From NCBI GenBank assembly GCA_013314775.1, contig JABUFB010000008.1:725036-789035 (forward strand): a DNA stretch of 64,000 bases, given 5' to 3'. Of this stretch, positions 1,521 through 62,409 are shown one piece after another (within the stretch, counting starts at the first letter, position 1; every line of letters starts with the position of its first letter). The stretch is from Armatimonadota bacterium. Lineage in GTDB: Bacteria; Armatimonadota; Zipacnadia; Zipacnadales; JABUFB01. Made by a program: the position numbers and the translations under genes. Below the pieces are notes generated by a model. It had not been told where the DNA came from. It searched no databases and saw nothing but the letters and a program-made list of their open reading frames with translations.

Positions 1521-1603
1521 GGCTTGGGAAGGTCGTGCCGGCTGCGCGGGGAATACGTGGTCTTCGCTCGAATGTCGGCAGGCGCATGCAAGGGAGGACT
1601 GCA

Positions 1604-2881
1604 ATGCCAACGAAGCTTGCCATTGACGGCGGCTCACCGGTCGTGCCCGAGGGCATGATCAAGAGCTGGCCGGTGATCACCGACGCGGACCGCGAGGCGC
1701 TGGTTTCGGTGCTGGATAGCGGCCATCTGCACGGAACCAGCGCACCACTGGCCACCGAGCTCCAGAGGCGCTGGGCCGAGTACTGCGGGACGAAATACGC
1801 TATCGTCACCAGCAGCGGCACTGGAGCGCTGCACATGTCGCTGATGGCAGCCGGAGTGATGCCCGGCGACGAGGTAATCGTTCCCGCTTTCACGTACTGG
1901 GCCACAGTGGTCCCGGTGGTGCAGCAGAGCGGCATCCCGATCTTCGCGGACATCGATCCGGAGACGTACACCCTGGACCCGGCGAAAATCGAGGAGCGCA
2001 TCACCGATCATACGAAAGCGATCCTGCCGGCGCATATCCATGGTATGCCGGCAGATATGGACCCCATCAATGAGATCGCCCGCAAGCACGGACTGGTTGT
2101 AATTGAGGACGCCTGCCAGGCCCACGGGGCCATGTACAAGGGGCACAAGACCGGCTCTCTGGGCGATGTGGCGGGGTTCAGCTGCAACCGTTCCAAGTGC
2201 CTGTCCGGCGGCGAGGGCGGGCTCGTGACGACCAGCCACGATGATTTCGCCGCTGTAGCCGACCGCTGCCGAGTCGTCGGCCCCATCCCGCAGACCACGC
2301 GTGACCCGATCTACGCGCTGGGCTGGGGATACCGGCCCCATGAGTTCGTGAACGCCTTCATCCTGAGCCAGCTCGACCGCCTCGACGAGTACAACGGCAT
2401 CCGTAGAAAGTATGCGGCGTATATCACGCAGGAGTTGGCGAAAATACCCGGATTTGAGGGGCCCGTCACTCCGGACTGGGCGGATCCGTGCTACTTCTGC
2501 TATGTGGTAACATTCAGGCCCGATCAACTAGGGCTGGATTGCACGGCGCAGGAGTGGAAAGAAGCGTGCAAGAGGGCCCTTGCCGCCGAGGGCATGGGGC
2601 TGGGGAACTGGCAGTATGAGCCGGTGCCGGGCATGAGCGTATTCCGTGACAAGGTGGGTTTCGGCAAGGGACACCCCTGGAGCAGCCCATTCGCCCGGCA
2701 GGACGTGGTTTACGACCCCGAGGAATACCCGGCCGCGAAGGAGTTCATCAGCAGTCACGCCTATCTGGGCGGCGTCTACCCTCCCAACGGCATGGACCTG
2801 ATGGAGCTGTACGTGCAGGGCTTTCAGAAGATCAGCGAGAACGCGCAGCGGGTTCTCGAATCCGCGCGCGAACAGGGATAG
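1604..2881 (+). CDS. DegT/DnrJ/EryC1/StrS-family PLP-dependent sugar or aminocyclitol aminotransferase
   Basis: N-terminus MPTKLAIDGGSPV, with motifs TSSGTGALHMSL and IEDACQAHGA and a lysine region SKCLSGGEGG typical of DegT-family aminotransferases. GGGAGG RBS at 1592-1597 sits 6 nt before ATG 1604. The ORF-track start at 1535 lacks an RBS. Confidence 0.85.
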   Translation: MPTKLAIDGGSPVVPEGMIKSWPVITDADREALVSVLDSGHLHGTSAPLATELQRRWAEYCGTKYAIVTSSGTGALHMSLMAAGVMPGDEVIVPAFTYWATVVPVVQQSGIPIFADIDPETYTLDPAKIEERITDHTKAILPAHIHGMPADMDPINEIARKHGLVVIEDACQAHGAMYKGHKTGSLGDVAGFSCNRSKCLSGGEGGLVTTSHDDFAAVADRCRVVGPIPQTTRDPIYALGWGYRPHEFVNAFILSQLDRLDEYNGIRRKYAAYITQELAKIPGFEGPVTPDWADPCYFCYVVTFRPDQLGLDCTAQEWKEACKRALAAEGMGLGNWQYEPVPGMSVFRDKVGFGKGHPWSSPFARQDVVYDPEEYPAAKEFISSHAYLGGVYPPNGMDLMELYVQGFQKISENAQRVLESAREQG

Positions 2882-3775: not shown

Positions 3776-3885
3776 TGCATTGGGGCCAGTGTCAAGAGTC
3801 TGCGTCACGGGGGCGATCGGATTGGCAGGCGATCTGAGGGGGTAAAAGGATGTTTCAGCCCACATTACACTCAGGAAAGGCAACC

Positions 3886-4503
3886 ATGAAACGCAGGCCT
3901 CTCGCCGGCTTCACACTCATCGAACTCCTGGTCGTCATCGCGATCATCGCGATCCTGGCAGCCATTCTCTTCCCGGTTTTCGCGCGAGCGCGGGAGAAAG
4001 CCCGGCAGAGTTCCTGCCTGTCCAACCTGAAGCAGATCACCCTCTCGCTACTCATGTACGCCGACGACTGGGACGAGACCCTTCCCTACTACCAGCGGCC
4101 GTGGGGCTACGCGTGGTACGACGACATCATCCCGTACATGAAGAACCGGCAGATTCTCGTCTGCCCCAGCAAGACCGACTGGAACCCCAGTGCCCCCACC
4201 CACAAGACGGGGTACGGTCTCAACGAAACCGTCTTCCCTTCGGGCAATGGCTCGCCGTGGCCGGTCCCGCCGATACCGCTGAGCGCCATCCAGAGCCCAT
4301 CGGAGACCATCGCAGGAGCCGACAAGAACCAGGGGAATGTGTACATCGTCGGGCTGTCTTTCTCGGGTTCGACTGCCTGGCCGTACAATGTGGACACCCG
4401 ACACAATGACGGCGCGAACTTTGCCTTCATGGACGGGCATGCCAAGTCCATGAGTAAGGGGGGCACGTGGTCGACGAGCAACACCATGTGGGACCTGTAC
4501 TGA
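3886..4503 (+). CDS. Prepilin-type N-terminal cleavage/methylation domain protein with a C-terminal H-X9-DG motif (DUF1559-like pseudopilin-type protein)
   Basis: Leader MKRRPLAG followed by [44 protein letters not shown]-terminal [16 protein letters not shown] matches H-X9-DG. ATG 3886 is preceded by GGAAAGG. Confidence 0.9.
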
Positions 4504-5461: not shown

Positions 5462-5917
5462 TCAGCCGCCCTTCGTGTGCCACTGGTAGCCGATCTCAGG
5501 GTCATCCCAGGGCCGGCGGAGTTCATCAGGGCTGGCGTAGACGTAGTGCTCGGTGGGCACGTTGAGGACCAAGGCCATCTCGCTGCCCAGGCAGACCCAG
5601 CCGTGCCACACCCCCGGGGGAATCTGGATCAGGGTGCGGTTCAGTTCGCCGATGACGAAGGAGTTGGTTTCGCCGCGGGTCGGCGAGTTCTCGCGGCCGT
5701 CCCAGAGAGCGACTTTCACATTGCCCTTCACGCAGCAGAAGGAATCTGTCTGCTTGGCGTGAGCATGCCATGCCTTCACAATGCCCGGATACGTGGCGGA
5801 GATGTAGCACTGCCCGAATCCAAGGAAAAGCTCCTCGTCGTTGCGCAGGACCTCCATGAGGTACCCGCGGTCATCGGCGATGAGCTTCAGCGGCTTGGTG
5901 CGGACGCCATCAATCAT
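5462..5917 (-). CDS. Cupin-fold sugar epimerase/ketoisomerase (RmlC / FdtA / WxcM-like; dTDP-4-dehydrorhamnose 3,5-epimerase-related)
   Basis: MIDGVRTKPLKLIADDRGYLMEVLR... with HAHAKQTD and a conserved cupin core. GGGAGGG lies 11 nt upstream of ATG 5917. The ORF-track start at 5965 lacks an RBS. Confidence 0.7.
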   Translation of the reverse strand: MIDGVRTKPLKLIADDRGYLMEVLRNDEELFLGFGQCYISATYPGIVKAWHAHAKQTDSFCCVKGNVKVALWDGRENSPTRGETNSFVIGELNRTLIQIPPGVWHGWVCLGSEMALVLNVPTEHYVYASPDELRRPWDDPEIGYQWHTKGG

Positions 5918-5994
5918 CGTCCGGGTTCCCTCCCGGTAACAAGCGCAACGGGCAATGGCCGGCAACGGATCACGACCAGGTCCCGCAGTCCGGC

Positions 5995-14460: not shown

Positions 14461-17400
14461 TCAGTCGAACAGGCTGACGATTGCGCTGACGACCCAGAAC
14501 GAGTCACGGAGGGTGCGCCAGAGGTCTCCACGTGCCGGTGCGCGCGGCGGGACATAGAAAATGTCGCCGGGCTTCACCTTGACCGGGTCCGGCACCTTCC
14601 CCTGCCGCAGTTTGGCGAGGTTGATCTCGGTGTGTTCCGTGGTCCCGTCGGGACGCTTCCGGATCATGATCACGCGCTGTTGAGCGCCCGGCGCGAGGGC
14701 AGCGCGGCTGACAATGTCCATGATGCCCCATTCCGGGTCCAGCGGATACGGCCCCGGACGCCCCACGGCGCCCAGCACGTAGATCTCGTCCATTGCCGGC
14801 ACAACCACCACATCGCCGGGCTGCAGGTCCATGGTCTGATCCAGCGCACCCTCGTCCTGCAGGAGCCTCAGGTCCCTGTAGATCGGCTCCTGATCCGGGC
14901 GGTACACGGTCACGCGGGTCAGATCGGCAGTGGCGAGGGGCTGCATGAGCGTGACCACTCGCAGCAGGTCGCGGTTGGCCTTCTCGCGGATATTCACGGC
15001 GCCATTGCGCTGCAGGGCACCGAGGACCATGATGTTATTGACATCGTCCGTCGGCACATAAACCAGATCGCCGGGCTGGAGTTCGAGGTTCTGGGTCATG
15101 TCGCCCTCTTCGACAAGGGCGCGGTAATTGCGGACGATGGCTTCCCCGTCACGATAGATGGTTACGCGGTCCAGGCCGCCTTCGGGATTGGGTGAGGCCA
15201 GAGGCAGCAAGCGTACCAGGTCGCGCTCCTTCGCTCCGTGGATGCTGATCGCGCCGGGCCTCGCCACCTCGCCCGCGAACACCACCGTTTCGGTCGCCAT
15301 GGGCACGTGTACGATATCCCCCGGCTCGAGCATCATGTTCTGCGACGTGTCGCCCTCTTCCTCGAGCCGCGTGAGGTCGCGGACGATTCTCTCGCCCTTG
15401 CGGTAGACGCTGACCCGCGACAGATCGGCGGTGGGCCGATTCGGCCCCGCGAAGGTGACCGTAGCGAACAGGTCATTGCTGCGCCCGACTTCCTGGGGCA
15501 CAACGCCGGAGCGCATGACCTGGCCGGTGATGATGATGCTCCCCGTGCCAAGCTGGGGCACGAGCACCCGGTCGCCGTCTTCGAGAAGCAGTGTCTGGCT
15601 GGTGTCGCCCTGGTCGAAGTAAGCGCGCAGGTTTCGCACGATCACCTCATCGCCCCGATGGACGGTGACATTGGTCAGATCGGCCATGGGGTCCCAGCCC
15701 GCAGCGGTCACTACCCGGGCGAGATCGCGCTGCTCTTCGGTCACCAATTCGATGGTCCCGCGACGCTGGACGGCGCCGGTGATGAGGACGCTCACGGTGT
15801 CCAGGCCCGGGACGAGAATGCGGTCGCCGGGCAGGACCTCGGCATCCACCGGCACCGGCACACCTTCCTCCACTAGACCCTTCAGGTTGTACACGAACTG
15901 CTCGTCACCCCGGAACACTGTGACTCGCTTCAGGTCCGCATTGGGCAGCGGGCCGGATGCCAGCAAGGTATCCACCAGCCTGCGGTTCTCGGGGTCGGAG
16001 ACCCGCACCTGCCCCGCTCGTTGGACCGCGCCAGTGATGAGCGCCGTCCCGCGGTCGATGGGGATGACCACGAGGTCGCCGTCTTCCAGCTGGAGGGTCT
16101 GCGAGGTGTCGCCCTCGTACAGGTACGCCTGAACGTCGCGGGTGATCTTCTCACCGCCGCGATGCACCGTCACCCGGCGCAGGTCGGCGAAAGGAGCCGG
16201 TCCGGATGCGGCGATGAGCCGGGCAAGGTCCCGGGTATCCTCGTCGCCAAGGGCAAGGACGCCGGTGCGTCCTGCGGCGCCGGCCAGGAGAATACTGTCC
16301 TCGTATGCCGGGACCTTGATGATATCGCCGTCCTCCAGCAGGAAGCTCTGGGACAGGTCGCCGGTCTCGTATAGTTTTTTCAGGTCACGCTTGATCTGCT
16401 GTTCGCCCCGGAAGATAGTGACCCTGGACAGATCGGCGTTGGGCATCGGCCCGGCGAGAGTGACCACGCGCAGGAGATCGCGCTGTTTGTCATCGAAGAG
16501 CTGGATGCTGCCGGATCGGGCGACCGCGCCCATGACAAGGACGGTATGCTCAACGCGCGGCACCACCACCACGTCGCCATCCTCAAGCTGCAGTGAGTAG
16601 GCTTCCAGCCCGGTTTCGATGAAGGCCTTGATGTCGCGCTCCGTGGTATTGCCGCCGCGATGGACCTTGACGCGGGTGAGGTCGGCGTTGGGCAGCGGCC
16701 CGGCAAGGGTAACCAGGCGGGCCAGGTCACTCCGCGGGTCATCCGCAACGGTGAGCAGCCCCGCCTGGGCCACCGCACCGGTGATCAGAATATTGCGCAG
16801 CTCGCGGGCGGGGACCGTGATGATGTCTCCGGGCTCGACATACATGGACTGGGTGCGGTCGCCGTCTTGGATCATCGCCAGCAGGTTGCGGACGATCTTG
16901 TTCTGCCCGCGGTGGACGGTAACGTGTTCGAGATCGGCCTGGGGCAGAGGTCCGGCGGCCAAGATCAGGCTCGCGAGGTCGCGGTCAAGCGTTGGCACAA
17001 GCCTCAGCACTCCGCCTCGGCTCAGCGCACCAGTGAGCATGATGCTGTCTTCGACCACGGGGACGCGGATCATGTCCCCGTCTTCCAGGGCGAGAGTGGC
17101 CTGGCGATTGCCTTCCTCGATGTACGGTTTCACATTGACCAGAATCTGTTTGCCACCACGGCTAACCATGACCCGGGTCAAGTCGGCATAGGGCAGCGGA
17201 CCAGACATGAGGATCAGGCGGCCAAGATCGCGCCAGTCATCATCCACGAGGCGCACGATCCCGCCGCGCTCTACGGCGCCTGACAGAACCACGTTCTCGT
17301 CGATCTCCGGCACAACAATGACATCCCCGTCTTCCACAGGGATGCTGTTTTCCATGCGGCCTTCGTCCACCGCGGCCTGCAGATCGCGGATGATGGTCTC

Positions 17401-18996
17401 GCCATTGCGGTGGATGGTGACGCGTCTGAGATTGGAGCCCGTGCCCGGTCCGGAGACGGTGACGATGCGCAGAAGGTCGTGGTCTTCGTCCCGCGCGATC
17501 TGGAGCACTCCCTGGCGGGATACTGCGCCGGTCACAAGCACGCTGTCAACCTCCCGTGCGGGCACCATAACCATGTCGCCGGGTTGGAGGTCGAGATTCT
17601 GAGACAGGTCGCCTTCGTCCATGAGCGCCTGCAGATTGCGGACTATGGTCTCCTTGCCGCGATAGACGGTGACCCGGGTGAGGTCACTCATGGGGCCCGG
17701 GCCGGCGGTTGTGATGATGCGCAGCAGGTCGCGCTCGGTCACCCCGCGCAGGTTGAAAGTCCCGGTTCGCCCCAGCGCTCCCATGACCAGCAGCGTCTGG
17801 GAGACCCCTTCGGGAATCACCAGCACGTCACCGGGCAGCAGCGAGGATTCATCGGGGGCCTGACCAGCTTCGATGAACCGCTGCAGGTCTACACTGATGC
17901 TCTTGCCGGCCCGGATGATCTCCGCGCGGCTCAGATCCGCGGTGGCAGTGGGGCCGCCGGCGGCTGCCAGGCCCTGCAGGACGGGGATGGGGCTCCCCAT
18001 GCGGAAGACTTGAGGGGTGTTGACCTGTCCGACCACCGAAATGCTGCCGGCCTCGTGCACCACCAGTACATCCCCGCCGCGGAGCACATGGTTCTGGCTG
18101 GTACTGCCGCCCTTGAGCAGCGCGTTCAGGTCGATCTCAAGCGGGTCGGAATCGGCACGCAGGAGGATGGCGCGGGAGCGGTCGGCAATGGGAGAGAAGC
18201 CCTGGGACATGCGCAGGGCGTCAAGCACCCGCACTTCGCGGTCCACGGGGAGCAGGAGACTGCCGGGGGCCTGAACCTCCCCGAGGATCATGACTTCCTC
18301 GCGCACCCGAGGAACATAGACGGTGTCGCCATATTCCAGGCGATGTTCGTGCCCAAGACCGCCTTCACCTCGAAGGCCGCTGCAATCTACTTCGATGGGC
18401 TTACCGCCCGGGTGTGTGAGGCGCACCCGGCGCAAGTCAGCGTACGGGCCGGGACCGGCGGCGGCCACGGCGTCGGTGAGCGTGGAGCCAAAGGGCAAGG
18501 TGACCGCCCCGTTGCGGGACAGTTCGCCGGACACGTACACCTTGCGGATGGAATTGATCTCGTCCACGGTCACCTTGACCGACGGTTTTCGTACGAGCGT
18601 GCTGAGACGTTTGACCAAGAACGCCTCGGCTTCGCGCAGGGTCATCCCGCGCAAGCCGACCTGGCCGAGGAGGGGCATGGGGATGGATCCACCGGGGCCA
18701 ATGCGCGCGGCGGTGGAGAGCGTGGGCTCGTTGAAGACCACTATCTGCACCACATCGCCGGCGCTGAGCCGATAGTCGGTATCCACGGAAAAGCGGGGCG
18801 TGAGGGAGCGCACCGGCCCGGCCCCCGCTGTCCGGGACTTTGCTGAGGAGGCAGCCTGCGCGAGCGCTGTATCGCGGGAGGCCTGGTCGTCTTTGAGACT
18901 TGCCGCACAGGCGGTTCCAGCGCTGCAAGATACCAGGAGGGCGACGAGAAGGGCAACCCTTCCGAAGCCGGCCCTAGACGTGGCCCTGCGGAACAT
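14461..18996 (-). CDS. Giant Wza/KpsD-like polysaccharide export protein: signal peptide, N-terminal Poly_export (PES) domain, then about 16 tandem SLBB (soluble-ligand-binding beta-grasp) repeats
   Basis: Signal peptide MFRRATSRAGFGRVALLVALLVSCSAGTACAAS. PES domain YRLSAGDVVQIVVFNEP...LGQVGLRGMTLREAEAFL. About 75-aa units recur (DL.RV.V.RG...IVRNL.AL..EGD.SQN..L.PGD.V.VP....SVLVTGAV.R.G). GGGAGG lies 7 nt upstream of ATG 18996; the 45 codons upstream of this ATG in the ORF track have no RBS. Confidence 0.85.
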   Translation of the reverse strand: MFRRATSRAGFGRVALLVALLVSCSAGTACAASLKDDQASRDTALAQAASSAKSRTAGAGPVRSLTPRFSVDTDYRLSAGDVVQIVVFNEPTLSTAARIGPGGSIPMPLLGQVGLRGMTLREAEAFLVKRLSTLVRKPSVKVTVDEINSIRKVYVSGELSRNGAVTLPFGSTLTDAVAAAGPGPYADLRRVRLTHPGGKPIEVDCSGLRGEGGLGHEHRLEYGDTVYVPRVREEVMILGEVQAPGSLLLPVDREVRVLDALRMSQGFSPIADRSRAILLRADSDPLEIDLNALLKGGSTSQNHVLRGGDVLVVHEAGSISVVGQVNTPQVFRMGSPIPVLQGLAAAGGPTATADLSRAEIIRAGKSISVDLQRFIEAGQAPDESSLLPGDVLVIPEGVSQTLLVMGALGRTGTFNLRGVTERDLLRIITTAGPGPMSDLTRVTVYRGKETIVRNLQALMDEGDLSQNLDLQPGDMVMVPAREVDSVLVTGAVSRQGVLQIARDEDHDLLRIVTVSGPGTGSNLRRVTIHRNGETIIRDLQAAVDEGRMENSIPVEDGDVIVVPEIDENVVLSGAVERGGIVRLVDDDWRDLGRLILMSGPLPYADLTRVMVSRGGKQILVNVKPYIEEGNRQATLALEDGDMIRVPVVEDSIMLTGALSRGGVLRLVPTLDRDLASLILAAGPLPQADLEHVTVHRGQNKIVRNLLAMIQDGDRTQSMYVEPGDIITVPARELRNILITGAVAQAGLLTVADDPRSDLARLVTLAGPLPNADLTRVKVHRGGNTTERDIKAFIETGLEAYSLQLEDGDVVVVPRVEHTVLVMGAVARSGSIQLFDDKQRDLLRVVTLAGPMPNADLSRVTIFRGEQQIKRDLKKLYETGDLSQSFLLEDGDIIKVPAYEDSILLAGAAGRTGVLALGDEDTRDLARLIAASGPAPFADLRRVTVHRGGEKITRDVQAYLYEGDTSQTLQLEDGDLVVIPIDRGTALITGAVQRAGQVRVSDPENRRLVDTLLASGPLPNADLKRVTVFRGDEQFVYNLKGLVEEGVPVPVDAEVLPGDRILVPGLDTVSVLITGAVQRRGTIELVTEEQRDLARVVTAAGWDPMADLTNVTVHRGDEVIVRNLRAYFDQGDTSQTLLLEDGDRVLVPQLGTGSIIITGQVMRSGVVPQEVGRSNDLFATVTFAGPNRPTADLSRVSVYRKGERIVRDLTRLEEEGDTSQNMMLEPGDIVHVPMATETVVFAGEVARPGAISIHGAKERDLVRLLPLASPNPEGGLDRVTIYRDGEAIVRNYRALVEEGDMTQNLELQPGDLVYVPTDDVNNIMVLGALQRNGAVNIREKANRDLLRVVTLMQPLATADLTRVTVYRPDQEPIYRDLRLLQDEGALDQTMDLQPGDVVVVPAMDEIYVLGAVGRPGPYPLDPEWGIMDIVSRAALAPGAQQRVIMIRKRPDGTTEHTEINLAKLRQGKVPDPVKVKPGDIFYVPPRAPARGDLWRTLRDSFWVVSAIVSLFD
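14634..18564 (-). repeat. Divergent tandem coding repeats (about 225 bp period, roughly 16 copies) encoding the SLBB modules of the exporter
   Basis: The (E/P)GD..(V/I)VP and TGAV.R.G motifs recur every 73-78 aa in the translation. The DNA copies are diverged rather than identical. Confidence 0.75.
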
Positions 18997-19200
18997 GTAT
19001 TCGTCCTCCCCAGCTCGAGGTGTCTGCATTGTGCGTCGTCTATAGACTGCAATTCTTGCGGCAATTCGCCGCTGGGGTCGGCAGGCGGGCACAAATGGCG
19101 CCCGAAGCACGCCGCTGATATTATAGCACACTCATTCTGCCTAGACTATAGAGGGCCCCTCTTGGACAAGTCAAGCCCGCCGGCGGGCTACGAGGTCTGT

Positions 19201-21032: not shown

Positions 21033-22049
21033 TTGAAGGCCCCCGTCAACCAGGCGGTCCTGCTGGTGGGTGGACAGGGCACGCGATTGCGTCCCCTGAC
21101 CTGTGATCGCCCCAAGGCTCTCGTACCCTTGTTGAATGAGCCCCTGCTGGCCTGCGAACTGCGCCTTCTGGCACGCCACGGCATCACTAACGTGATCCTT
21201 TCCGTTGGTTACCGCGCGCGCGTCCTCCAGGATGCGCTGGGGGATGGGTCGCGCTGGGGGGTAAGGCTGCGGTACGTTGAGGAGCCTTCGGCACTGGGAA
21301 CCGCCGGCGGTCTGCGGAATGCCCTGGAGCTGCTGGATGGGCCCTTCGTGGCGATGAATGGGGACCTGGTGTACGACGTAGACCTGTCCGCCTTTGCCGA
21401 AGCCCACCTGCGAGCGGGCGCGATGGTGAGTTTCTGCCTGCGGCGAGTGGAGGATATACGGCGTTTCGGGCTGATCCAGTGCGACGATTCCGGTCGAGTC
21501 GTGGCCTTCCGCGAAAAGCGGGAGGTCGACGAGACCGGACGGAATACTGTGAACAGCGGGGTCTATCTCATGGACCCGGAAGCATTGCTGCGGGTGCCCG
21601 CGGGCGTTGAGTGGTCCAACGAGACCCAGCTGTTTCCCGGTCTGCTCCAGGAAGGCTGCCTCTTGCTGGGGTTCATGCCCGAACAACAGGGCTACTGGGC
21701 TGACGTGGGCACAGTAGAGTCGTACCTGCAGACCAGCCGCGACCTGCTGCGAGGCGCAATTCCGTGGATGCGGGGAGCGGTCGCCACATCTGTCATGGGA
21801 CGCACCGAGGACATCGAACAACCGGTGGGGCTGGCTGAAGGCGTACGCATTGAGGATGGCGCACGAGTAGGGCCGGAGGTGTGCATTGGCGCGCGTGGCA
21901 CAGTCGGCGCCGGGGCGCGCATCCAGGCGTCTATCCTGTGGGAAGATGTGACCATTGGGCCCAATGCCCATATTCACAACTGCATAATCGGCGCCGGGGT
22001 GACCATCGGCGCGGGCTGCAAGTACAGTGGAAAGGTCGTCGTCCGGTGA
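21033..22049 (+). CDS. Sugar-1-phosphate nucleotidyltransferase with a C-terminal left-handed beta-helix (mannose-1-P guanylyltransferase / glucose-1-P nucleotidyltransferase type)
   Basis: N-terminal LLVGGQGTRLRPLT nucleotide-binding loop. C-terminal hexapeptide repeats (IGAGVTIGAGC). TTG start at 21033 preceded by GAGGTG. Confidence 0.8.
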   Translation: MKAPVNQAVLLVGGQGTRLRPLTCDRPKALVPLLNEPLLACELRLLARHGITNVILSVGYRARVLQDALGDGSRWGVRLRYVEEPSALGTAGGLRNALELLDGPFVAMNGDLVYDVDLSAFAEAHLRAGAMVSFCLRRVEDIRRFGLIQCDDSGRVVAFREKREVDETGRNTVNSGVYLMDPEALLRVPAGVEWSNETQLFPGLLQEGCLLLGFMPEQQGYWADVGTVESYLQTSRDLLRGAIPWMRGAVATSVMGRTEDIEQPVGLAEGVRIEDGARVGPEVCIGARGTVGAGARIQASILWEDVTIGPNAHIHNCIIGAGVTIGAGCKYSGKVVVR

Positions 22050-31265: not shown

Positions 31266-33275
31266 ATGCTTGCCGCACTGATTCTGGAGATTCGGAGCCC
31301 CACCGCGTTGAAAATACTCGCCGCGACCTCGCCTCCTGTTTCCAACGATCCCGGGGCAAGGGGCGTCACTCCCCGGGCTGTGATCCTTGCCTGCATACTG
31401 CTGCCGGCGAACGCCTACTGGATCACCCAGATGGCCGTGGTGCGGTACGAGGGCCACCCAACCACGGTTTCGCTGTTCTTCAACGCCGTCTTCATACTCT
31501 TCTCGCTGGTGCTGATCAACTCCGGCATCCGTCGACTCTTCCCGCGCCGTGCGCTGCACCGCAATGAACTGCTAGTGATCTACTGCATGGTCTGCGTGGC
31601 CTCGGCGCTTTGTGGGCACGACCTGATCCAAGTGGTCACTCCGCAGATTGTGATGCCCTTCTGGCTGGCAAGCCCGGAGAATAAGTGGGAAGACCTCTTC
31701 TTCCAGTACCTGCCGCAGCACCTGACCATCAGCGACCCGGATATTTACGAGCCTGCATTCGAGGGCGGCACGACGCTGTATACCATGGAGCGCATAAAGG
31801 CCTGGGCCGTGCCGGTCGCGAACTGGGGTCTGTTTCTCATCGTCCTGAGCACCATGATGCTGGCGATGAACTCTCTGCTTCGCAAGCGTTGGATGGACCG
31901 GGAAAAGCTGACCTACCCCATCACCCACATGCCCCTGGAGCTGACCCAGCCGGGCGTCCCCCTCTTGCGCAACAAGTTCATGTGGATGGGATTCGCAGTC
32001 GCCGCGGCGATCACGCTCATCAACGGCTTTCACGAACTGTGGCCCGCGATCCCGCTCATCAAAGTGCGCGTGGTCCACTATGATGCGTACATGTCCACGC
32101 TGTTCCGGACGTATCCGTGGAACGCCCTCGGCGGGACGCGTATCTCCTTCTACCCCTTCGCGGTAGGCCTGGGCCTCCTGCTTCCCCTGGACCTGGCGTT
32201 TTCATGCTGGTTCTTCTATCTCTTCTGGAAGGGGCAGCGGCTTGTCTCCGCGATGCTCGGGTTGAGCCAGATCCCACGTTTCCCGTACGCCGATCAGCAG
32301 GCTTCGGCGGCATATATCGGACTGGCAGTTTTTGCGCTGTGGATGGCCAGGGGACACATCAAGGATATCTGGCTGGGTCTGGTGGGCCGATCGCCAATCA
32401 ACGACAAGGGTGAGCCGATGGGCTACCCCCTGGCGATGTGGGTGTTGGGGGGCGGCGCGGCGTTTCTTGCGCTTTTCGCGGCGCGCATGGGCATGTGGAT
32501 GTGGGTCGCAACACTGCTCTTTGGCATCTACTTCCTGATCTCTCTGACGGTGGCACGCGTTCGGGCTGAACTTGGCCCGCCTGCCCATGATTTGCACAAT
32601 GGCGGCCCGGACCTCATCCTCACGAACCTGTTCGGCACAAGCACGGCTGTCTTCGACGCCCGCCAGTTGACTGTGCTCGAAATGTGCTACTGGTTCAACC
32701 GAGCCTACCGCGCACACCCCATGCCGATCCAGCTTGAGTCCTTCAAGATCGCGCAGACGTCGGGAATCCCCCAGTCCGCGATGGCGCTGGCCCTTACCAT
32801 CGCCACGGTTATCGGCGTGTTTGCCGCTTTCTGGGCACAGGTCCACAACTACTACAGCTATGGGATGGCGGCGAAAATGAGTTTTGTCGCCCAGACTTTC
32901 GGGCGCGAGCCATTCCAGCGTCTTGCAGGCTGGCTACAGGCGCCATACGGCACTCGCTGGCCCGAAATCGGCGCCTACGCAGTGGGATTCGTCTTCTCAC
33001 TGCTTCTCATGTTTCTGCGCGTGAACTTCATCTGGTGGCCCTTCCACCCTGTCGGCTATGCAATCTCGGGCAGTTGGTCGATGAACTGCCTGTGGCTCCC
33101 CATTTTCATCGCCTGGCTCATCAAGTTAGTCATGCTGCGCTACGGCGGGTTCAAGATGTTCCAGTCGGCGATTCCCGCCGCCCTGGGACTGGTCCTGGGC
33201 GAGTTCATTCTCGGAAGCCTGTGGACCCTGATTGGGATCATTTTCCAGATACGCACGTACGCATTCTGGGTGTGA
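31266..33275 (+). CDS. Large polytopic integral membrane protein of unknown function (at least 12 predicted hydrophobic helices)
   Basis: 669-aa ORF with repeated 20-25 aa hydrophobic stretches (e.g. VSLFFNAVFILFSLVLI, WGLFLIVLSTMMLAM, GGAAFLALFAARMGMWMWVATLLFGIYFLISL). No recognisable transporter motifs. Confidence 0.55.
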   Translation: MLAALILEIRSPTALKILAATSPPVSNDPGARGVTPRAVILACILLPANAYWITQMAVVRYEGHPTTVSLFFNAVFILFSLVLINSGIRRLFPRRALHRNELLVIYCMVCVASALCGHDLIQVVTPQIVMPFWLASPENKWEDLFFQYLPQHLTISDPDIYEPAFEGGTTLYTMERIKAWAVPVANWGLFLIVLSTMMLAMNSLLRKRWMDREKLTYPITHMPLELTQPGVPLLRNKFMWMGFAVAAAITLINGFHELWPAIPLIKVRVVHYDAYMSTLFRTYPWNALGGTRISFYPFAVGLGLLLPLDLAFSCWFFYLFWKGQRLVSAMLGLSQIPRFPYADQQASAAYIGLAVFALWMARGHIKDIWLGLVGRSPINDKGEPMGYPLAMWVLGGGAAFLALFAARMGMWMWVATLLFGIYFLISLTVARVRAELGPPAHDLHNGGPDLILTNLFGTSTAVFDARQLTVLEMCYWFNRAYRAHPMPIQLESFKIAQTSGIPQSAMALALTIATVIGVFAAFWAQVHNYYSYGMAAKMSFVAQTFGREPFQRLAGWLQAPYGTRWPEIGAYAVGFVFSLLLMFLRVNFIWWPFHPVGYAISGSWSMNCLWLPIFIAWLIKLVMLRYGGFKMFQSAIPAALGLVLGEFILGSLWTLIGIIFQIRTYAFWV

Positions 33276-39643: not shown

Positions 39644-39990
39644 TTGGTGGAGGCGGCGGGAATCGAACCCGCGTCCGAAGAGAGGAACGACACTGCGTCT
39701 ACGAGCGTAGCGGCCGATTCGATCTCGCCGTGGCTTCCCTGGTCGCCCGGTATCCCCGGCCAGCCCGAATTTGGTTCCCGCGTCCCTTAGCGGGCGTTTG
39801 GGACGTCGGTATCCAACCCAGTTGATGTCTCATCCGAAGCGGGTTGGCTCGCCCCGGGAGACATGGCTACGTTAAGCAGCCAGTGCCAGTTCGTTGTTGG
39901 CAGTTATTCTTTTCCCGCGTTTTACGAGACTCGGGGATCTCGGCTCGCAGCCTTGCCTTTCCTGTCTCCCCGTCGAAACCAATCGCCCCC
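39644..39990 (-). ncRNA. ssrA: Transfer-messenger RNA (tmRNA, SsrA), 347 nt, tag peptide (A)NNELALAA
   Basis: Minus-strand sequence GGGGGCGATTGGTTTCGACGGGG...CTCGTAAAA...AATAACT GCC AAC AAC GAA CTG GCA CTG GCT GCT TAA...GGACGCGGGTTCGATTCCCGCCGCCTCCACCA. Acceptor stem carries the G3-U pair. T-arm and encoded CCA are present. Very similar in layout to E. coli ssrA. Confidence 0.95.
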
Positions 39991-48185: not shown

Positions 48186-49790
48186 TCACGGCGCGTTCTC
48201 AGGCCGCTTGCCAATGGCTTCTGCCTCGGTTGCTGTCTTCACTTCAACCGGCCGAGCCCGCGCGCCTACCTTCACGGACAACGGGTCAAGCACCACCAGA
48301 TCATCCACAGTGAGACCCTCGAGTATCGCCGTGCCCTCATCCGTGCGCGGGCCGGGAAGCACCGGGCGCCGCCGGATGTGTCCGCCTTCAACAAGAAGCA
48401 CGTATGCCTCCTGCCCCACGCGCACGAGGCACGCTTCAGCTACCGCCGGGAGCTGCCGGTCCGCATCCACGATGATGTCGGCAAGAGCGGGCTTTCTGCC
48501 TTCCACTGCGTCGGCGCTCGCGTTCAGTTGCAGTGTAACGGTGACCACTTCCCGCTCGTCACCGGGCTCAGGCACTTCACTCACCGTGGCTTCGAAGCTC
48601 TCGTCTGGCGAACCGCGCAGCGCGACGCGTGCGGTCTGGCCGAGACGGATGCGCGCTGCATCCCTCGCCGGGACCTGCACGCGGGCGACGGGTGGTCTGG
48701 CTTCCGCGATCGTGAGCACCACTGATTCGGCGCTCACGAAGTCGCCCTCTTGCCGCAGGACCTCGGTGATAATGCCGTCGAAGGGCGACTTGACGTCAGT
48801 TGTCCGGAGGGACGCGTCGATCTGGTCGCGCAGGTTCTCGGCACGTTCCAGGCGCTCCAGGGCAGCCTTCAGGCGCTCGTCCAGGGCCTGCCGACGCTTC
48901 TCCAATATGTTCGGGGCAGGCTCAGGCCCATCTGTAGACTGCTGCTCGCGCAGGGCGGCGACATAGCGCGCTTCGGCATCCTCCAGCGCGCGCCGGGCCT
49001 TCTCGAGCTCCTCGCCCAGCTCCCTCCTCGCGCGGGACCGCAGGGCATCTGAGCGCTCCTGCGCCGCGGCCAGGCCCCGCTTCGCGGCTTCGAGCTTCCG
49101 CGTGGCACGGTCCAGATCAAGCTGAGCCTGGGCCAGGACTTCAGGTTCCTTCTTCCCCTCGGTCATCAACTGCCGGGCGTGGTCGCGCAGCTTCGTCATT
49201 CGGTCCACGTGGGCCTGCTCGATCTCCAGGCGACTGCGGGCGCTCTCAAGCTCCTTCGTCGCGTCCTTCATCTCGCGCATGGCATCCCGGGAATCCGACG
49301 CTTCCTTGGCGAGACGGGCGAACTCCTCGCGGAGGCGCCGCACCTCATTCCGGGCCTGTGCAAGTGTGTCGGTGGCTGCCAATTCCGGCGTGCTGTCGGG
49401 TTCACGCTCGATGGCTCGTCGCACCGCGTCCAGTTCAGCGCGGGCATCCTTGACCACGGCTTCAGCACGCTCCAGGTCTCGAGCGCCGCTCTGGGAACCA
49501 AGCCGCGCGATGACCTGGTTCGCGGACACTTCGCTGCCCGGTGTGACCAGCATCTGCACAATGATGCCTGGGTCGTGCAAGGTCAGCTCAACCTGCTTCG
49601 GGCCCAAGACGACGCCGTCCACAGAGAGGATTTCCGGCGCCAGGGTCATGCGCGGGCGAATGACCTCCACCGGTGCGGGACGCGCCACTGACCAGAGCGC
49701 GGCGCCTGCGGCGAGGATGCCGATAATCGCCCCGACGAGCAGCCAACGCCGGGTACGCGTGTCGTATGACGGCGGGGTCTCGGGCGTCAT
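48186..49790 (-). CDS. HlyD-family secretion / efflux periplasmic adaptor protein (membrane fusion protein) with a long coiled-coil
   Basis: N-terminal TM anchor RRWLLVGAIIGILAAGAALWSV. Long coiled-coil (REEFARLAKEASDSRDAMREMKDATKELESARSRLEIEQAH...). C-terminal beta-barrel/lipoyl-like segments. Start could instead be TTG 49931. Confidence 0.7.
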   Translation of the reverse strand: MTPETPPSYDTRTRRWLLVGAIIGILAAGAALWSVARPAPVEVIRPRMTLAPEILSVDGVVLGPKQVELTLHDPGIIVQMLVTPGSEVSANQVIARLGSQSGARDLERAEAVVKDARAELDAVRRAIEREPDSTPELAATDTLAQARNEVRRLREEFARLAKEASDSRDAMREMKDATKELESARSRLEIEQAHVDRMTKLRDHARQLMTEGKKEPEVLAQAQLDLDRATRKLEAAKRGLAAAQERSDALRSRARRELGEELEKARRALEDAEARYVAALREQQSTDGPEPAPNILEKRRQALDERLKAALERLERAENLRDQIDASLRTTDVKSPFDGIITEVLRQEGDFVSAESVVLTIAEARPPVARVQVPARDAARIRLGQTARVALRGSPDESFEATVSEVPEPGDEREVVTVTLQLNASADAVEGRKPALADIIVDADRQLPAVAEACLVRVGQEAYVLLVEGGHIRRRPVLPGPRTDEGTAILEGLTVDDLVVLDPLSVKVGARARPVEVKTATEAEAIGKRPENAP

Positions 49791-50008
49791 GGGGACTCTC
49801 GCGCGGGATGAGTGAGCGCCTGCGGACCTGTGCAGATAGTACTCCACGCGGGGAGAGACGGCAACGGAGAAGCGAAGCAGGCTGGAAACGCGCAGTACAG
49901 GGTTTGTGGGAGTGTTCTGACCCGCTGCCAAGTCTCCCCTCCGCTCAGGCGTAGTTTTGCGGCACGTTGGCTGCTTATCTTGCGGACGTTACAAGCACCA
50001 CCCGTCCG

Positions 50009-51190
50009 TCAGAACCTCGGGTTCGGCCCGACCACTTCCGGGCGTTCCTCGGCCAATTCCTTCGCCATCGCCTTCAGGCGCGCATCCGCGTGCTCGAAGA
50101 GCATCCTGTATGATTCGCAGAAGTAGCTCGGGCCGTTGATAGTGCCGAGGCCGGTGAGCCGGTGTCGCTGACAGCCACCGTGGCACTGGCCGAACCAGGG
50201 GCAGTCCTCGCACCCGCACCCTGTCCGGGCCTTGTCGAACCGAAACTGCATGAACTTCTCGGAGAGCGCGATCTCTCGCAGCGGTGTCTCCATTACATTA
50301 CCCAGACGGTATTCCGGCTCCACGAAAAAGTCGCAGGGATAGACGTCGCCGTTGTGCTCGATGAGCAGATAGTCCGCGCACGTCCGGCGCATGTCGCACG
50401 ATGGGCACTCGTGGCCGAGATAGACCATAAGCAGGTCGTCCATCATGCGCACGTAAGTTCGCGGTGCTGATTCCGCTTGCCAGCGGTCGAAAATGGTGCA
50501 CAGGAACTCGCCAAACTGTCGTGGGGTGCAGTTGTACGGACAAAGCTTCCCCGTCTCCGGATCGCGCTCGATGCACGGGATGAACTGCAGATAGCGGAAG
50601 TTGTGCTGCATATAGAAGTCGTAGATCTCGTCGGCCTTGTCGCCCGAGTATGCGGTGACCATGCACAGGATGTTGAACTCTGCGCCATTTCGGTCGAGTA
50701 TTTCGGTGCTGCGCATGACCCGGTCCCATGTAGATTCGCCGGTGGGCGTGCGGCGGTAATGGTCGTGGATGTGCTTCGGGCCGTCGAGACTCACACCGAT
50801 GAGGAAGCTATACCTTCGGAAGAACCGGGCCCACTCATCATTGATGAGCATGCCGTTGGTCTGCAGGCCGTTGGCGATGTTTTGGCCAGGCCGCGCTTTC
50901 TGAAGCTGGACAGCCACCACGCTGCGAAAGAAATCCACACCGAGAAGTGTGGGTTCACCACCTTGCCAACCGAAAGAGGGATTGTCGCCAGACATCTCCA
51001 TGTACTCACCTATGAGCCGGTGCATGACCTCGCGCGACAGCCTGTGGCCGCCGCCGGGATAAATCGCGTGTTTCGGCAAGTAGAAACAGTACTCGCAGCG
51101 CAGATTGCAGTCAGGTCCGGCGGGCTTGATGAGCAAGCTGAGACTGCGCAGGTAGGCTTCGGGGTCGGTGATGCGGATGTCTGTGTCCAT
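50009..51190 (-). CDS. Radical SAM / SPASM-domain maturase of the anaerobic sulfatase-maturating enzyme (anSME) family
   Basis: CNLRCEYCFY (CxxxCxxC) and GGEPTLLG motifs. C-terminal Cys-rich SPASM region (CPSCDMRRTCADYL...CDFF...CGCEDCPWFGQCHGGC). ATG 51190 = MDTDIRITDPEAYL.... Confidence 0.8.
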   Translation of the reverse strand: MDTDIRITDPEAYLRSLSLLIKPAGPDCNLRCEYCFYLPKHAIYPGGGHRLSREVMHRLIGEYMEMSGDNPSFGWQGGEPTLLGVDFFRSVVAVQLQKARPGQNIANGLQTNGMLINDEWARFFRRYSFLIGVSLDGPKHIHDHYRRTPTGESTWDRVMRSTEILDRNGAEFNILCMVTAYSGDKADEIYDFYMQHNFRYLQFIPCIERDPETGKLCPYNCTPRQFGEFLCTIFDRWQAESAPRTYVRMMDDLLMVYLGHECPSCDMRRTCADYLLIEHNGDVYPCDFFVEPEYRLGNVMETPLREIALSEKFMQFRFDKARTGCGCEDCPWFGQCHGGCQRHRLTGLGTINGPSYFCESYRMLFEHADARLKAMAKELAEERPEVVGPNPRF

Positions 51191-51875
51191 GAGCGCGGGT
51201 ATGCCTCGTGGGGTCCCGAAATGGGGGTGACCGCTTCCGGGCCGGTGGTTATAATATGGGCCATAATACCCACACCGGCCCCCGCGAAGCAACCGGGGGA
51301 GGGTGGTCATGTGGCAGGGGCCCCATCCGCCCATCATGGGTCACGCCGGGAGAAGCGAAACACACGGAGGGCGCTGCACTGTCGGCGTCTATGCCCTGTC
51401 GCCGCCGTGAAACCCCGGTGGGGCCGTCCGTATGCAGCCAGGGGCGGGCGCCCCTGGAATCAGGTGTACGCGACCGCAGAGACGCGAAGCCCCAGCGGGC
51501 AGACAGGAACCGCTGCTCATCTGCCGCCCCCGTTGGGGGCTGACGTCGGACTGCAACCGAGGACGGAGCGCGCGTCATCAATACGGTTGTGTTCGCGGGA
51601 GCGCTTTGCCCCGCATGAGTTGGACACACGTGTGCTCATCGTTCACCTGGAGTTCGAGGGACTCGGTGACTGACTCGGCTGACACTTGAGCCGCCCACCC
51701 CGCCCCGGAGATAACATGGCGCGAATTGGCAAGAACAGGTATGTCTATCCACAGGCACTGATCCCATCCCGGGGTCAGTGCCTGCTTCCGTATGCCTGAT
51801 CGGGGCCGTGCACGGGCCCACTTCGCGACCACACCGGCGGCTTTCCCCGCCTCAAACTCACAGGAGCAATACGTG

Positions 51876-59134: not shown

Positions 59135-60586
59135 CTAATCTGCCGCGAACATGGTCTCCAGGATCCCCACGGCCTCATCAACGAGTTGCTGGCCACCGGC
59201 GGGCGACACATTGCAGCTTGCCGGCACCGCACCATAACTCAGTCCCTCCGCCGCGCGCTCGGTTGCCAGATAGGGACCACCGACGACGAGTTGCACCACG
59301 AAAGTCTGCACCGCCGGCGAGCGCCCTTTGATGCGGTCACCAAAGTCCAGGTAGTACTCGAATGGCGCTGTGACAAGAGCAATGTCGCCCACACGCAGGA
59401 CATTGACCTCGGTGGGCACACTATCCGGCGGGTTCTCGTAGCGGTCCACCGCGCGCCGGCACCAGGCGATCCTCGAGCGCAGAGATGTGTACTGGCTCCC
59501 CAGACGATCGGCATCACCCAGTTCTGCCAGCTGCCTCTCGGCCTCTGCAATGTCCTGCATCAAATCCGCATGCTCCGCCGCCGTGACCCTCCAGTGTTCG
59601 AGTTGGAGCGTGCGGTTCTCGTGTTTCAGTACCGCCCGGTCCCGCAGATCGCCGCGGATGACGGTCTCGGCCCCAACGGTCGCGTCCGCGATGCGGCAAG
59701 CAATCTCGGTGCGCAGAGCGGCGTTCAGGGGACGGCCAACTCCGCCGCCGTATTTGAGCTGCAGCATACGATCTTCAGCCTTCTTCGCGATCAGCCGGTG
59801 CGGGCTCTGGTCACCTGCGGCCGAACACTGGGGCAGCACGAAAAGGCCCGCGCCCAACCGCCGGCGCAACTCTTCGCGGACGTCATGCCAGTAGTCGGCC
59901 GAGACAAAGTCCTGCCCGCTTTCGCTGGCTTGCGACGGGCAGGCGAGATTGATCAGCACGCCCGTCAGGTTCCTCGCGGAGTCGTATGTGAACAGCAGGT
60001 TCACGCCGTGGTCTACGTGGCCCTCGATGTGAGAGAACTCGGGCACACTGGTGCTGCCGTACATCTTCGCGCTGCCGTCGAAGTACCGGACACGGCGGTT
60101 CTCGCCCACCACTGCGTGCGAGTAGCCCCAGCCGATGTGCCCCTCCGAGCGCCGTTTCCACGCCTCGCACACCGCATCCACCAGCGCCTCGATGAGCATC
60201 TCGGTGTACTCGGCTACGGTCACGTAATCAGGATAGCGGGCCCTGATGGCATCAAGGTACTCGGCATCCTGCTGCCAGCCGCCGGTTCCGTTAAATGGTC
60301 CGGTGTGCGTGTGCGTCGCGCCGATGATGATCTTGTGCGGATCCAGCTCCGGAACGCGTTCGGCAAGCGCCGCTCGCACCTCCCGGAGCACTTCGCCAGC
60401 GACTGAACACGCATCCACGGAAACGATCGCCGCATGGTCATCGTCTCTCTGCAGCACTAAGGCGGTCAATGTGAGCGGATCCTGCACTCGTGTGGCGATG
60501 CGCAGGTTGAACTGTCCGTGAAGGGATACCGGCCCCTGAGGGGTGATGTCTCGCTGTGCCCAGCCGATCCGGATCTTGTTTTTCAT
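59135..60586 (-). CDS. Neutral/alkaline-ceramidase-like N-terminal-domain hydrolase, paralogue A
   Basis: IGWAQRDITP... and GATHTHTGP signature shared with PF04734-type ceramidase N-domains. ATG 60586 = MKNKIRIGW.... Confidence 0.6.
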   Translation of the reverse strand: MKNKIRIGWAQRDITPQGPVSLHGQFNLRIATRVQDPLTLTALVLQRDDDHAAIVSVDACSVAGEVLREVRAALAERVPELDPHKIIIGATHTHTGPFNGTGGWQQDAEYLDAIRARYPDYVTVAEYTEMLIEALVDAVCEAWKRRSEGHIGWGYSHAVVGENRRVRYFDGSAKMYGSTSVPEFSHIEGHVDHGVNLLFTYDSARNLTGVLINLACPSQASESGQDFVSADYWHDVREELRRRLGAGLFVLPQCSAAGDQSPHRLIAKKAEDRMLQLKYGGGVGRPLNAALRTEIACRIADATVGAETVIRGDLRDRAVLKHENRTLQLEHWRVTAAEHADLMQDIAEAERQLAELGDADRLGSQYTSLRSRIAWCRRAVDRYENPPDSVPTEVNVLRVGDIALVTAPFEYYLDFGDRIKGRSPAVQTFVVQLVVGGPYLATERAAEGLSYGAVPASCNVSPAGGQQLVDEAVGILETMFAAD

Positions 60587-60889
60587 TTCGCGTGTGCCTC
60601 GGTTCTGTGACGGAATGCCCTCGGAGAGCACTCAGGGCGGTCCGAAGGTTGTTCAGGCCATTTCTATCTGCGCGGCAGTCGGACCCACACGATGCGTAGT
60701 GCCTTTGTGTGTTGCCTGTGCAGCAGACATAGAGAGCGATGGCCCCTGGACTCTTCCACGTGGGAAGTACACTCCACCTTCCCGCGGGATTGGACAAAGG
60801 CCGGTGCGGTTCCTGCAAGGTCTCCACGCCTGCCGAGGGGAACAGTCCTGCAGTGACGCGGCACGACTCCCTCGCAACGAGGTGCGCTC

Positions 60890-62173: not shown

Positions 62174-62409
62174 ACCCGGGCTGTTCCGGCAGCGATGATC
62201 AGCAGACTTCGGTCATCGCGCAGGCGCCGTTCCTCGCCGTGCGTTTCCCGATTCCCCGTGCCCATGAAGTTCGCGAAAAAAAGCCGGCGCGAAGGAGTGA
62301 ACTTCGCGGGAATGGTACACGTCACTCGTCCTTAGGGACTGGTGGATGGCGCTTGCGCGTCATCTGTCCTGCATGCCGCCTGCAGGCGGCTGACTGGGGG
62401 TCGAAATGC

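Follow-up and report, generated by a model that had tools for sequence, protein, structure and literature searches.

A Wza-like polysaccharide exporter with sixteen tandem SLBB modules in an Armatimonadota bacterium and its proposed reading as a lengthened periplasmic conduit

Members of the outer-membrane polysaccharide export (OPX) family act as the exit gate for capsules and exopolysaccharides, and what is known of their structure comes entirely from versions that carry a single SLBB domain or a pair of them, namely Wza, WzaB, and PslD. This report deals with a giant OPX gene in a stretch of 64,000 nucleotides (nt) from an Armatimonadota bacterium (assembly GCA_013314775.1, contig JABUFB010000008.1, positions 725,036 to 789,035), which is called the window throughout. 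The open reading frame spans window positions 14461..19131 on the minus strand, and translation from the ATG at 18996 yields a product of 1,511 amino acids (aa). The original prediction, made from the sequence, had placed a secreted Wza-like exporter of this length at 14461-18996, and this assignment is borne out by Pfam, by NCBIfam, by Foldseek matches to Wza and by the presence of a signal peptide. From its 5' to its 3' end the gene is organized as follows:

19145..19174, minus strand: candidate sigma70-like promoter TTGACT-18-TATAGT, about 150 nt 5' of the ATG (consensus scan, 10/12; a consensus match alone)
18904..18996, minus strand: ATG start (18994-18996) with the Sec signal peptide (residues 1-31), MFRRATSRAGFGRVALLVALLVSCSAGTACA, read from the translation by eye
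18787..18903, minus strand: low-complexity linker, residues 32-70 (AlphaFold2 pLDDT below 50 for protein residues 26-70, fragment residues 1-45)
18565..18786, minus strand: Poly_export (PES) domain, residues 71-144 (Pfam PF02563 and phmmer matches to Wza chains)
17812..18564, minus strand: SLBB modules 1-3, residues 145-395, divergent and proximal (own-profile matches, E ~1e-26)
14797..17811, minus strand: SLBB modules 4-15, residues 396-1400, amplified core (own-profile matches, E 1e-29 to 1e-36)
14548..14796, minus strand: SLBB module 16, residues 1401-1483, divergent and distal, adjoining the tail (own-profile match, E 1e-23)
14464..14547, minus strand: C-terminal tail, residues 1484-1511, a basic stretch followed by the amphipathic helix DLWRTLRDSFWVVSAIVSLFD, a candidate outer-membrane segment (AlphaFold2 and conservation)
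14461..14463, minus strand: stop codon (reading frame and translation)

The ATG at 18996 is almost certainly the true start of the gene, since a GGAGG Shine-Dalgarno sequence lies 8 nt upstream of it, the sigma70-like promoter candidate precedes it and the orthologues begin at the homologous methionine. The signal peptide displays an n-region with Arg and Lys, a hydrophobic core and an ACA-AS cleavage site (the hyphen marks the cut), and the orthologues keep a mature N-terminus of Ala or Gly followed by Leu-Lys behind the AxA site, i.e., in the context AxA-(A/G)LK. A lipobox-like LVSC motif is also present. However, its cysteine is not conserved and is missing in the orthologues P0004, P0007 and others, so that a lipoprotein signal is unlikely and the signal is probably of the signal-peptidase-I type.

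The domain composition shows the features of the OPX family, i.e., a PES domain, SLBB beta-grasp domains following it and a Sec signal peptide. Poly_export is matched at residues 71-144 with 66.2 bits (cut-off 28), SLBB_2 with an E-value of 2.6e-93 and nine stretches passing, and SLBB with an E-value of 3.4e-34, and the NCBIfam model PRK15078 for a polysaccharide export protein reaches 359.5 bits, where the cut-off is 333; the PES and SLBB assignments made beforehand thus hold in the Pfam search. When the modules themselves were made into a profile, it resolved exactly 16 modules over residues 145-1483, with E-values from 1e-23 to 1e-36. The predicted count of about 16 copies is therefore correct, while the predicted unit of 75 aa is too short: the modules measure 81-85 aa (~84), and every one of them terminates in GDxxxVP. 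Weak Pfam matches to cupin and JmjC domains fall on this GDxxxVP beta-hairpin and were rejected as spurious, no stretch passing alone. Identity among modules 4-15 is 33-53%, whereas modules 1-3 are 20-37% and module 16 is 20-27% identical to the other modules. This difference suggests that the terminal modules (1-3 and 16) have distinct roles and that a single internal module type was amplified.

Repeat-rich genes in metagenomes can be mis-assembled, and an array of this kind might be suspected to be an assembly artefact or part of a decaying pseudogene. At the DNA level the copies of the module, with a period of 249-255 nt, are only 60-81% identical to each other, which leaves nothing for an assembler to collapse or expand, and Tandem Repeats Finder detected no tandem array in the gene. 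A contig of an independent metagenome-assembled genome (MAG) in GenBank, JAGPGE010000016 (Armatimonadota bacterium Gw_SlDig_bin_68), keeps the gene order of the window without breaks in collinearity along 18.3 kb, with 87.5% nt identity; its copy of the OPX gene contains no indel, again encodes 1,511 aa and shows 94% aa identity, and a gene of the same length was also recovered from Logan, JGI and ENA assemblies. Comparison of the window gene with the JAGPGE010000016 copy by the Nei-Gojobori method gives a whole-gene ratio of non-synonymous to synonymous substitution rates (dN/dS) of 0.069, with 0.049 for the PES domain and 0.02-0.12 for each of the 16 modules; residues 1-70, comprising the signal peptide and the linker, are the sole relaxed part of the gene, with 0.47. 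All 16 modules are under strong purifying selection.

A word-indexed search revealed a tight family of orthologues (P0001-P0013) of 1,415-1,516 aa with 43-94% identity and 15-16 modules. In four 16-module orthologues (P0002, P0004, P0007 and P0010; 55-67% identity) every module pairs as reciprocal best match with the module of the same number, the one exception being module 11 in P0007, the match of which is not reciprocal. In each of the three 15-module variants one module is missing, and it is a different one every time (3, 7 or 2). Given the low identity of the DNA repeats, the indel-free copy in the MAG, the dN/dS values and the positional orthology, the module array is old, ordered and constrained module by module. 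With an intact frame at a dN/dS of 0.07, a gene of equal length in independent assemblies and positional orthology across all 16 modules, an artefact or a pseudogene is effectively refuted, and the original prediction, which had named an artefact as one outcome that would undo it, stands in this respect.

For modeling of the fold, AlphaFold2 was run on two monomer fragments, residues 26-480 and 1233-1511, with shallow orthologue alignments of 9-11 sequences. Fragment 1233-1511 (pLDDT 86, pTM 0.74) is predicted to contain three beta-grasp domains and a terminal helix, module 16 being modeled as a beta-grasp with a pLDDT of ~85. Its top Foldseek matches are the Wza chains 9R68, 9R64 and 2J58 (E ~3e-11), and a pair of adjoining modules can be superposed on Wza D2-D3 with 179 aligned columns and 4.7 Å. 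For fragment 26-480 (pLDDT 76, pTM 0.48) the model shows a disordered linker that leads into the PES domain, behind which four beta-grasp modules follow, and the top Foldseek matches are again Wza (9R60 and 2W8I; E ~1e-19, 266-272 columns, 26-27% identity, rmsd 7.3 Å), the alignment to Wza D1-D3 covering the PES domain and the first two modules. Sequence comparison by phmmer leads to the same family, with E-values of 1e-18 to 3e-22 to the Wza chains 26gs/2j58 over residues 72-270, followed by WzaB and PslD in the PDB. Among the Foldseek matches are also linear chains of poly-ubiquitin, in which this beta-grasp fold is likewise strung together, and GfcC (3P42) as a weaker match only; the latter match arises because GfcC itself consists of two SLBB-like domains and a helix.

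The layout of a PES domain followed by an SLBB array had been predicted properly, and a conserved element at the C-terminus had been overlooked. Here, AlphaFold2 predicts a helix of ~19 residues at protein residues 1492-1510 (fragment residues 260-278; pLDDT 55-81), which is amphipathic with a hydrophobic moment (muH) of 0.45. The tail pattern W..(I/L)RD....(I/L)F(D) is kept in all orthologues, and a tail of 24-35 aa is found in nearly all multi-SLBB relatives. A helix of ~20 residues would in principle be long enough to span the hydrophobic core of a membrane (20 x 1.5 Å = 30 Å), and in length it resembles the 21-residue helix of GfcC (PMC9603273).

Distant giants with 11-20 modules were found in the same search, and the genomic context was read for four of them, i.e., P0014, P0015 (from a Limnochordales MAG), P0021 and P0026 (from a Firmicutes MAG). 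These four, with 12-19 modules, share the arrangement of a PES domain, an SLBB array and a tail of ~26-35 aa with the window protein and are 25-31% identical to it over most of its length. In contrast to the close orthologues, they show no module-by-module orthology with it, and their SLBB expansions either arose independently or are too diverged to match. In all four, the next gene downstream of the OPX gene encodes a Wzz and GNVR co-polymerase of ~490-515 aa; a separate BY-kinase (AAA_31/CbiA type) and a CpsB/CapC phosphatase are encoded at three of the four loci, and Polysacc_synt_2, DegT and UDP-sugar dehydrogenase genes at some. On the Limnochordales contig lptF/G is present as well, in keeping with an outer membrane that contains lipopolysaccharide. 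Judged from these gene neighborhoods, multi-SLBB giants appear to be genuine parts of Wzx/Wzy-type export modules. Since all four distant giants directly precede a Wzz/GNVR polysaccharide co-polymerase (PCP), whereas the window gene stands alone, the expected partner of the window protein, inferred by homology of architecture, is a PCP with its gene at another place in the genome. The original prediction had held both cargo and partners to be unknown, and for the partner this survey of relatives shows it to have been too pessimistic, as the class of the protein can be named.

How unusual such an array is can be judged from the databases. The 16-module profile was scanned against 1.84 billion representative proteins and gave 20,729 matches at E<=1e-3, the best 150 of which form a continuum of module numbers. 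A recount with a stricter length filter covered 148 proteins, namely 143 of these matches and five from earlier searches: 37 of these have at least 10 modules and six have at least 16, most retain the N-terminal PES domain, and nearly all retain the C-terminal tail of 24-35 aa. The longest proteins found, P0123 (2,313 aa) and P0121 (2,040 aa), contain 23 modules each on recount (28 and 23 stretches by HMMER) and both have a PES domain and a ~26-aa tail. In the literature, 1-8 SLBB repeats were described for polysaccharide export proteins (Burroughs et al., 2007; PMC1796856), and Class 1 OPX proteins were later defined as Poly_export-SLBB(1-14)-Wza_C (Saidi et al., 2022; PMC9603273). The 16 modules of the window protein exceed this published maximum, yet they are well within the range that is present in databases. 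No experimental or structural work on OPX members with more than two SLBB domains was found in the literature searched. The earlier view that such giants are uncharacterized is thus upheld, and the view that their architecture is exceptional is not, given the SLBB(1-14) definition and proteins with 19-23 or more modules in the representative library; the window protein extends a catalogued, experimentally unstudied architecture and is not a new kind.

The neighborhood of the gene was read from Pfam scans of essentially all plausible open reading frames in the window. Downstream of the OPX gene lie a convergent HpcH-type aldolase gene and then genes for a DUF6259 protein, a short-chain dehydrogenase/reductase, an acyl-CoA-ligase-like enzyme and two M16 peptidases; upstream and divergent are recJ, a sugar-1-phosphate nucleotidyltransferase-like gene, serC/serA-like genes and surE. 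Genes related to sugar nucleotides are loosely scattered 2-16 kb from the OPX gene and form no cluster:

21033-22049, plus strand: NTP_transferase and hexapeptide protein
5462-5965, minus strand: dTDP-sugar isomerase/WxcM-like cupin
1535-2881, plus strand: DegT aminotransferase

Scattered pathway genes of this kind fit Fimbriimonas ginsengisoli, which has a visible capsule, yet no complete exopolysaccharide (EPS) cluster was found in its genome (PMC4072686). The only neighbor that recurs at three loci of close orthologues (L006, L007 and L008) is a DegT/DnrJ/EryC1 aminotransferase of 423 aa, encoded divergently and directly upstream of the OPX gene:

L006, 8409-9680, minus strand: DegT/DnrJ/EryC1 aminotransferase
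L007, 8297-9568, minus strand: DegT/DnrJ/EryC1 aminotransferase
L008, 7189-8460, minus strand: DegT/DnrJ/EryC1 aminotransferase

This neighbor hints at an amino-sugar polymer in the relatives. A conserved linkage with DegT was considered and rejected for the window, where the DegT gene (1535-2881) is 16 kb away, its product is only 33% identical and recJ occupies the upstream position. A protein of 669 aa with DUF6785 and DUF6784 (E 2e-159) is encoded at 31266-33275 on the plus strand, ~12 kb from the OPX gene, and has a counterpart at L006 889-2847 on the minus strand, ~7 kb from the OPX orthologue, with a Ham1-like gene close by in both; this shared neighborhood is probably residual synteny and not a functional link.

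Several further features of the window lie apart from the exporter. A complete tmRNA gene is located at 39645-39990 on the minus strand (Rfam RF00023, 183.9 bits; ARAGORN tag ANNELALAA). Two proteins with a prepilin-type N-terminal methylation motif and DUF1559 (SBP_bac_10) are encoded at 3850-4503 and at 62239-63111, both on the plus strand. This protein family is usually tied to Planctomycetota; as a marker it is not phylum-specific, and the closest genome record (94% aa identity) is labelled Armatimonadota by its MAG submitter. A planctomycetal origin of the window, which these two proteins had at first suggested, was given up in view of that label. Two divergent proteins at 59135-60631 (minus strand) and 60890-62173 (plus strand) show weak similarity to neutral/alkaline ceramidase at their N-termini, which in one case stays below the Pfam cut-off, an annotation that is unusual for a bacterium of such a type. 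Finally, an HlyD-type membrane-fusion protein (48186-49931, minus strand) is encoded beside a radical-SAM/SPASM maturase (50009-51337, minus strand), and these could be a peptide-modification and export pair.

We consider it probable that the window protein is a Wza-type OPX exporter of a diderm Armatimonadota bacterium and that its conduit through the periplasm has been greatly extended. Following Sec export, the protein would assemble into a ring-shaped oligomer as Wza does, the Wza oligomer being an octamer. The N-terminal PES ring would be positioned deepest in the periplasm, facing the inner membrane, where it would dock onto a Wzz/GNVR PCP encoded elsewhere in the genome. The 16 SLBB modules would form 16 stacked rings around a lumen for the growing polymer, and the C-terminal amphipathic helix of ~20 residues would form or join the outer-membrane pore. 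Wza has three rings and a periplasmic part of ~10 nm, and from this value, ~25-30 Å for each beta-grasp ring and the additional PES ring a conduit of roughly 40-50 nm can be estimated. The oligomerization, the continuous stacking, the outer-membrane-spanning helix, the conduit length and its match to the width of the periplasm are all inferred.

Several observations weigh against this reading. In the 64-kb window the Pfam scans found no PCP or Wzc, Wzx, Wzy, capsule ABC transporter or glycosyltransferase (GT) cluster, as had been remarked beforehand for Wzc, Wzx and other capsule partners, and no partner gene (PCP, Wzx/Wzy, ABC transporter or GT cluster) lies beside the close orthologues in L006, L007 and L008, so that the association of the OPX family with a PCP and Wzx/Wzy or an ABC transporter is seen at the four distant giants and at none of these loci. 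The Pfam model Wza_C (PF18412) gave no match at E<=10 on the tail of the window protein or on the tails of four relatives, and the terminal helix has ~20 residues, compared with 35 in Wza. The geometry between modules is uncertain in the monomer models from 9-11 sequences, above all for the N-terminal fragment with its pTM of 0.48 and its rmsd of 7.3 Å. In E. coli terms, ~25 nm of periplasm are bridged by the complete Wza-Wzc machine, and a stack of ~45 nm together with a PCP would exceed a periplasm such as that of Escherichia coli, which is 21-44 nm wide (PMC12881504).

The silence of Wza_C and the short helix (~20 residues against 35 in Wza; PMC9603273) would also be expected from an entirely periplasmic OPX protein similar to Class 3, the helix of which docks onto a separate beta-barrel porin of the GfcD/PgaA type that is encoded elsewhere and provides the pore. 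A Class 3 OPX protein combined with a porin is the commonest arrangement overall (PMC9603273, PMC9601211, PMC12819527), and with the genes of this lineage scattered, an absent neighbor says little. However, no beta-barrel porin gene was detected in the window by the Pfam scans and none adjoins the OPX orthologues, the neighbors of which look like cytoplasmic enzymes; the 693-aa DUF6259 protein of the window and an unannotated 779-aa downstream protein in L007 were considered as adjacent porins and rejected, as both lack a signal peptide and look cytoplasmic. The marks of Class 3 proteins (Myxococcus WzaX/S/B type) are accordingly not those seen here, where a conserved C-terminal amphipathic helix is present and an 18-stranded beta-barrel porin is not adjacent. 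The amphipathic tail is moreover kept in almost all multi-SLBB relatives and is long enough in principle (30 Å), and Wza_C was called by Pfam on the Fimbriimonas homologue (Saidi et al., 2022; PMC9603273). We therefore regard docking onto a porin as unlikely. A more radical alternative dispenses with the channel: the protein might be a periplasmic or cell-wall scaffold in which a lectin-like string of SLBB domains binds peptidoglycan or a secondary polymer and serves as a spacer or tether. SLBB domains were proposed to bind sugars and soluble ligands (PMC1796856), and the SLBB domain of ComEA is thought to act in this way; export partners are missing nearby, and the Foldseek matches to poly-ubiquitin show that tandem beta-grasp domains need not form rings. 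Against this, the protein still has the PES domain, a part that exporters conserve absolutely, and strong constraint acts on it (dN/dS 0.049), the Wza-like order from the N- to the C-terminus is kept including the terminal amphipathic helix, and the four distant giants stand in operon-like arrangements with PCP genes, joined in three of them by BY-kinase and phosphatase genes. Because of this constraint on the PES domain and the linkage of the relatives to PCP genes, a scaffold appears very unlikely.

If the protein is a Wza-type exporter, as we favor, a conduit of the predicted 40-50 nm would probably suit no envelope but a wide one. Both Armatimonadetes and Limnochordia belong to the diderm Terrabacteria and have outer-membrane tethers of the OmpM/SlpA type, the coiled-coil spacers of which are long (10.1101/2021.05.31.446380; PMC9388160). 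The periplasm of Deinococcus has a width of 121 nm. For Thermus it was reported that six stacked periplasmic rings of PilQ bridge a wide periplasm (PMC5745081), and these tethered diderms, the width in Deinococcus and the precedent of PilQ make a wide envelope plausible. Since the number of modules is nearly constant (15-16) in the clade, the conduit length may be matched to a wide, thick-walled envelope as in other diderm Terrabacteria. It is a tentative and rather speculative extension of this idea that the number of SLBB rings acts as a ruler for envelope width, with 12-23 or more rings and conduits of 35-65 nm in OmpM-tethered diderm Terrabacteria, i.e., Armatimonadota, Limnochordia and relatives. 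If true, polysaccharide would cross a periplasm and a wall far thicker than in Proteobacteria, the module count (15-16 in the clade) would predict the periplasm width of uncultured lineages from sequence alone, and these proteins would represent an OPX subclass set apart by its structure, a long-barrel type in which the terminal helix is short and similar to that of GfcC. The conserved number and order of modules in this putative 16-ring version would mark conduit length itself as a selected trait. Should length indeed track envelope width, this would tie the architecture of exporters to the envelopes of diderm phyla that branch deeply, about which little is known, and would explain Armatimonadota capsules without a recognizable EPS cluster. 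The family of 15-16-module orthologues, together with homologues in cultured Fimbriimonas and Chthonomonas, offers a tractable target for cryo-EM and cryo-ET.

Compared with known systems, the window protein is nearest in organism to the long OPX proteins that are listed in the supplement of Saidi et al. for both cultured Armatimonadetes then available (PMC9603273): Fimbriimonas ginsengisoli peg_3156, with 1,356 aa, Poly_export, 10 SLBB domains and Wza_C, assigned to Class 2B, and Chthonomonas calidirosea peg_1166, with 1,154 aa, Poly_export and 7 SLBB domains, assigned to Class 2A. These proteins of the same phylum likewise combine one PES domain with many SLBB domains and a signal of the signal-peptidase-I type and are known from this bioinformatic census alone; the 16 modules counted here by a dedicated profile are set against 10 and 7 by published description only, PF10531 being prone to under-calling. 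Caps_synth_GfcC (PF06251), the mark of Class 2 OPX proteins of the KpsD type, gave no match at E<=0.01 in the window protein. The best-characterized relative is the Class 1 protein Wza of E. coli (PDB 2J58 and 9R60; Wza-Wzc complex 9R64/9R68), to which it is homologous in sequence (E 1e-18 to 3e-22) and which is the top structural match of both modeled fragments. It differs from Wza in having 16 SLBB modules and not 2, and in a signal that is probably of the signal-peptidase-I type whereas that of Wza is of the lipoprotein type; unlike wza, its gene is not clustered with wzc/wzb or biosynthesis genes. For the lengthening itself the closest parallel is an analogy and not a homologue, the PilQ secretin of Thermus thermophilus, in which fold, family and cargo (pili/DNA) are unrelated. 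It is likewise an outer-membrane channel of a diderm terrabacterium in which the number of rings was raised to span an unusually wide periplasm, with six stacked periplasmic rings (N0-N5) compared with the 17 that are predicted here (PMC5745081).

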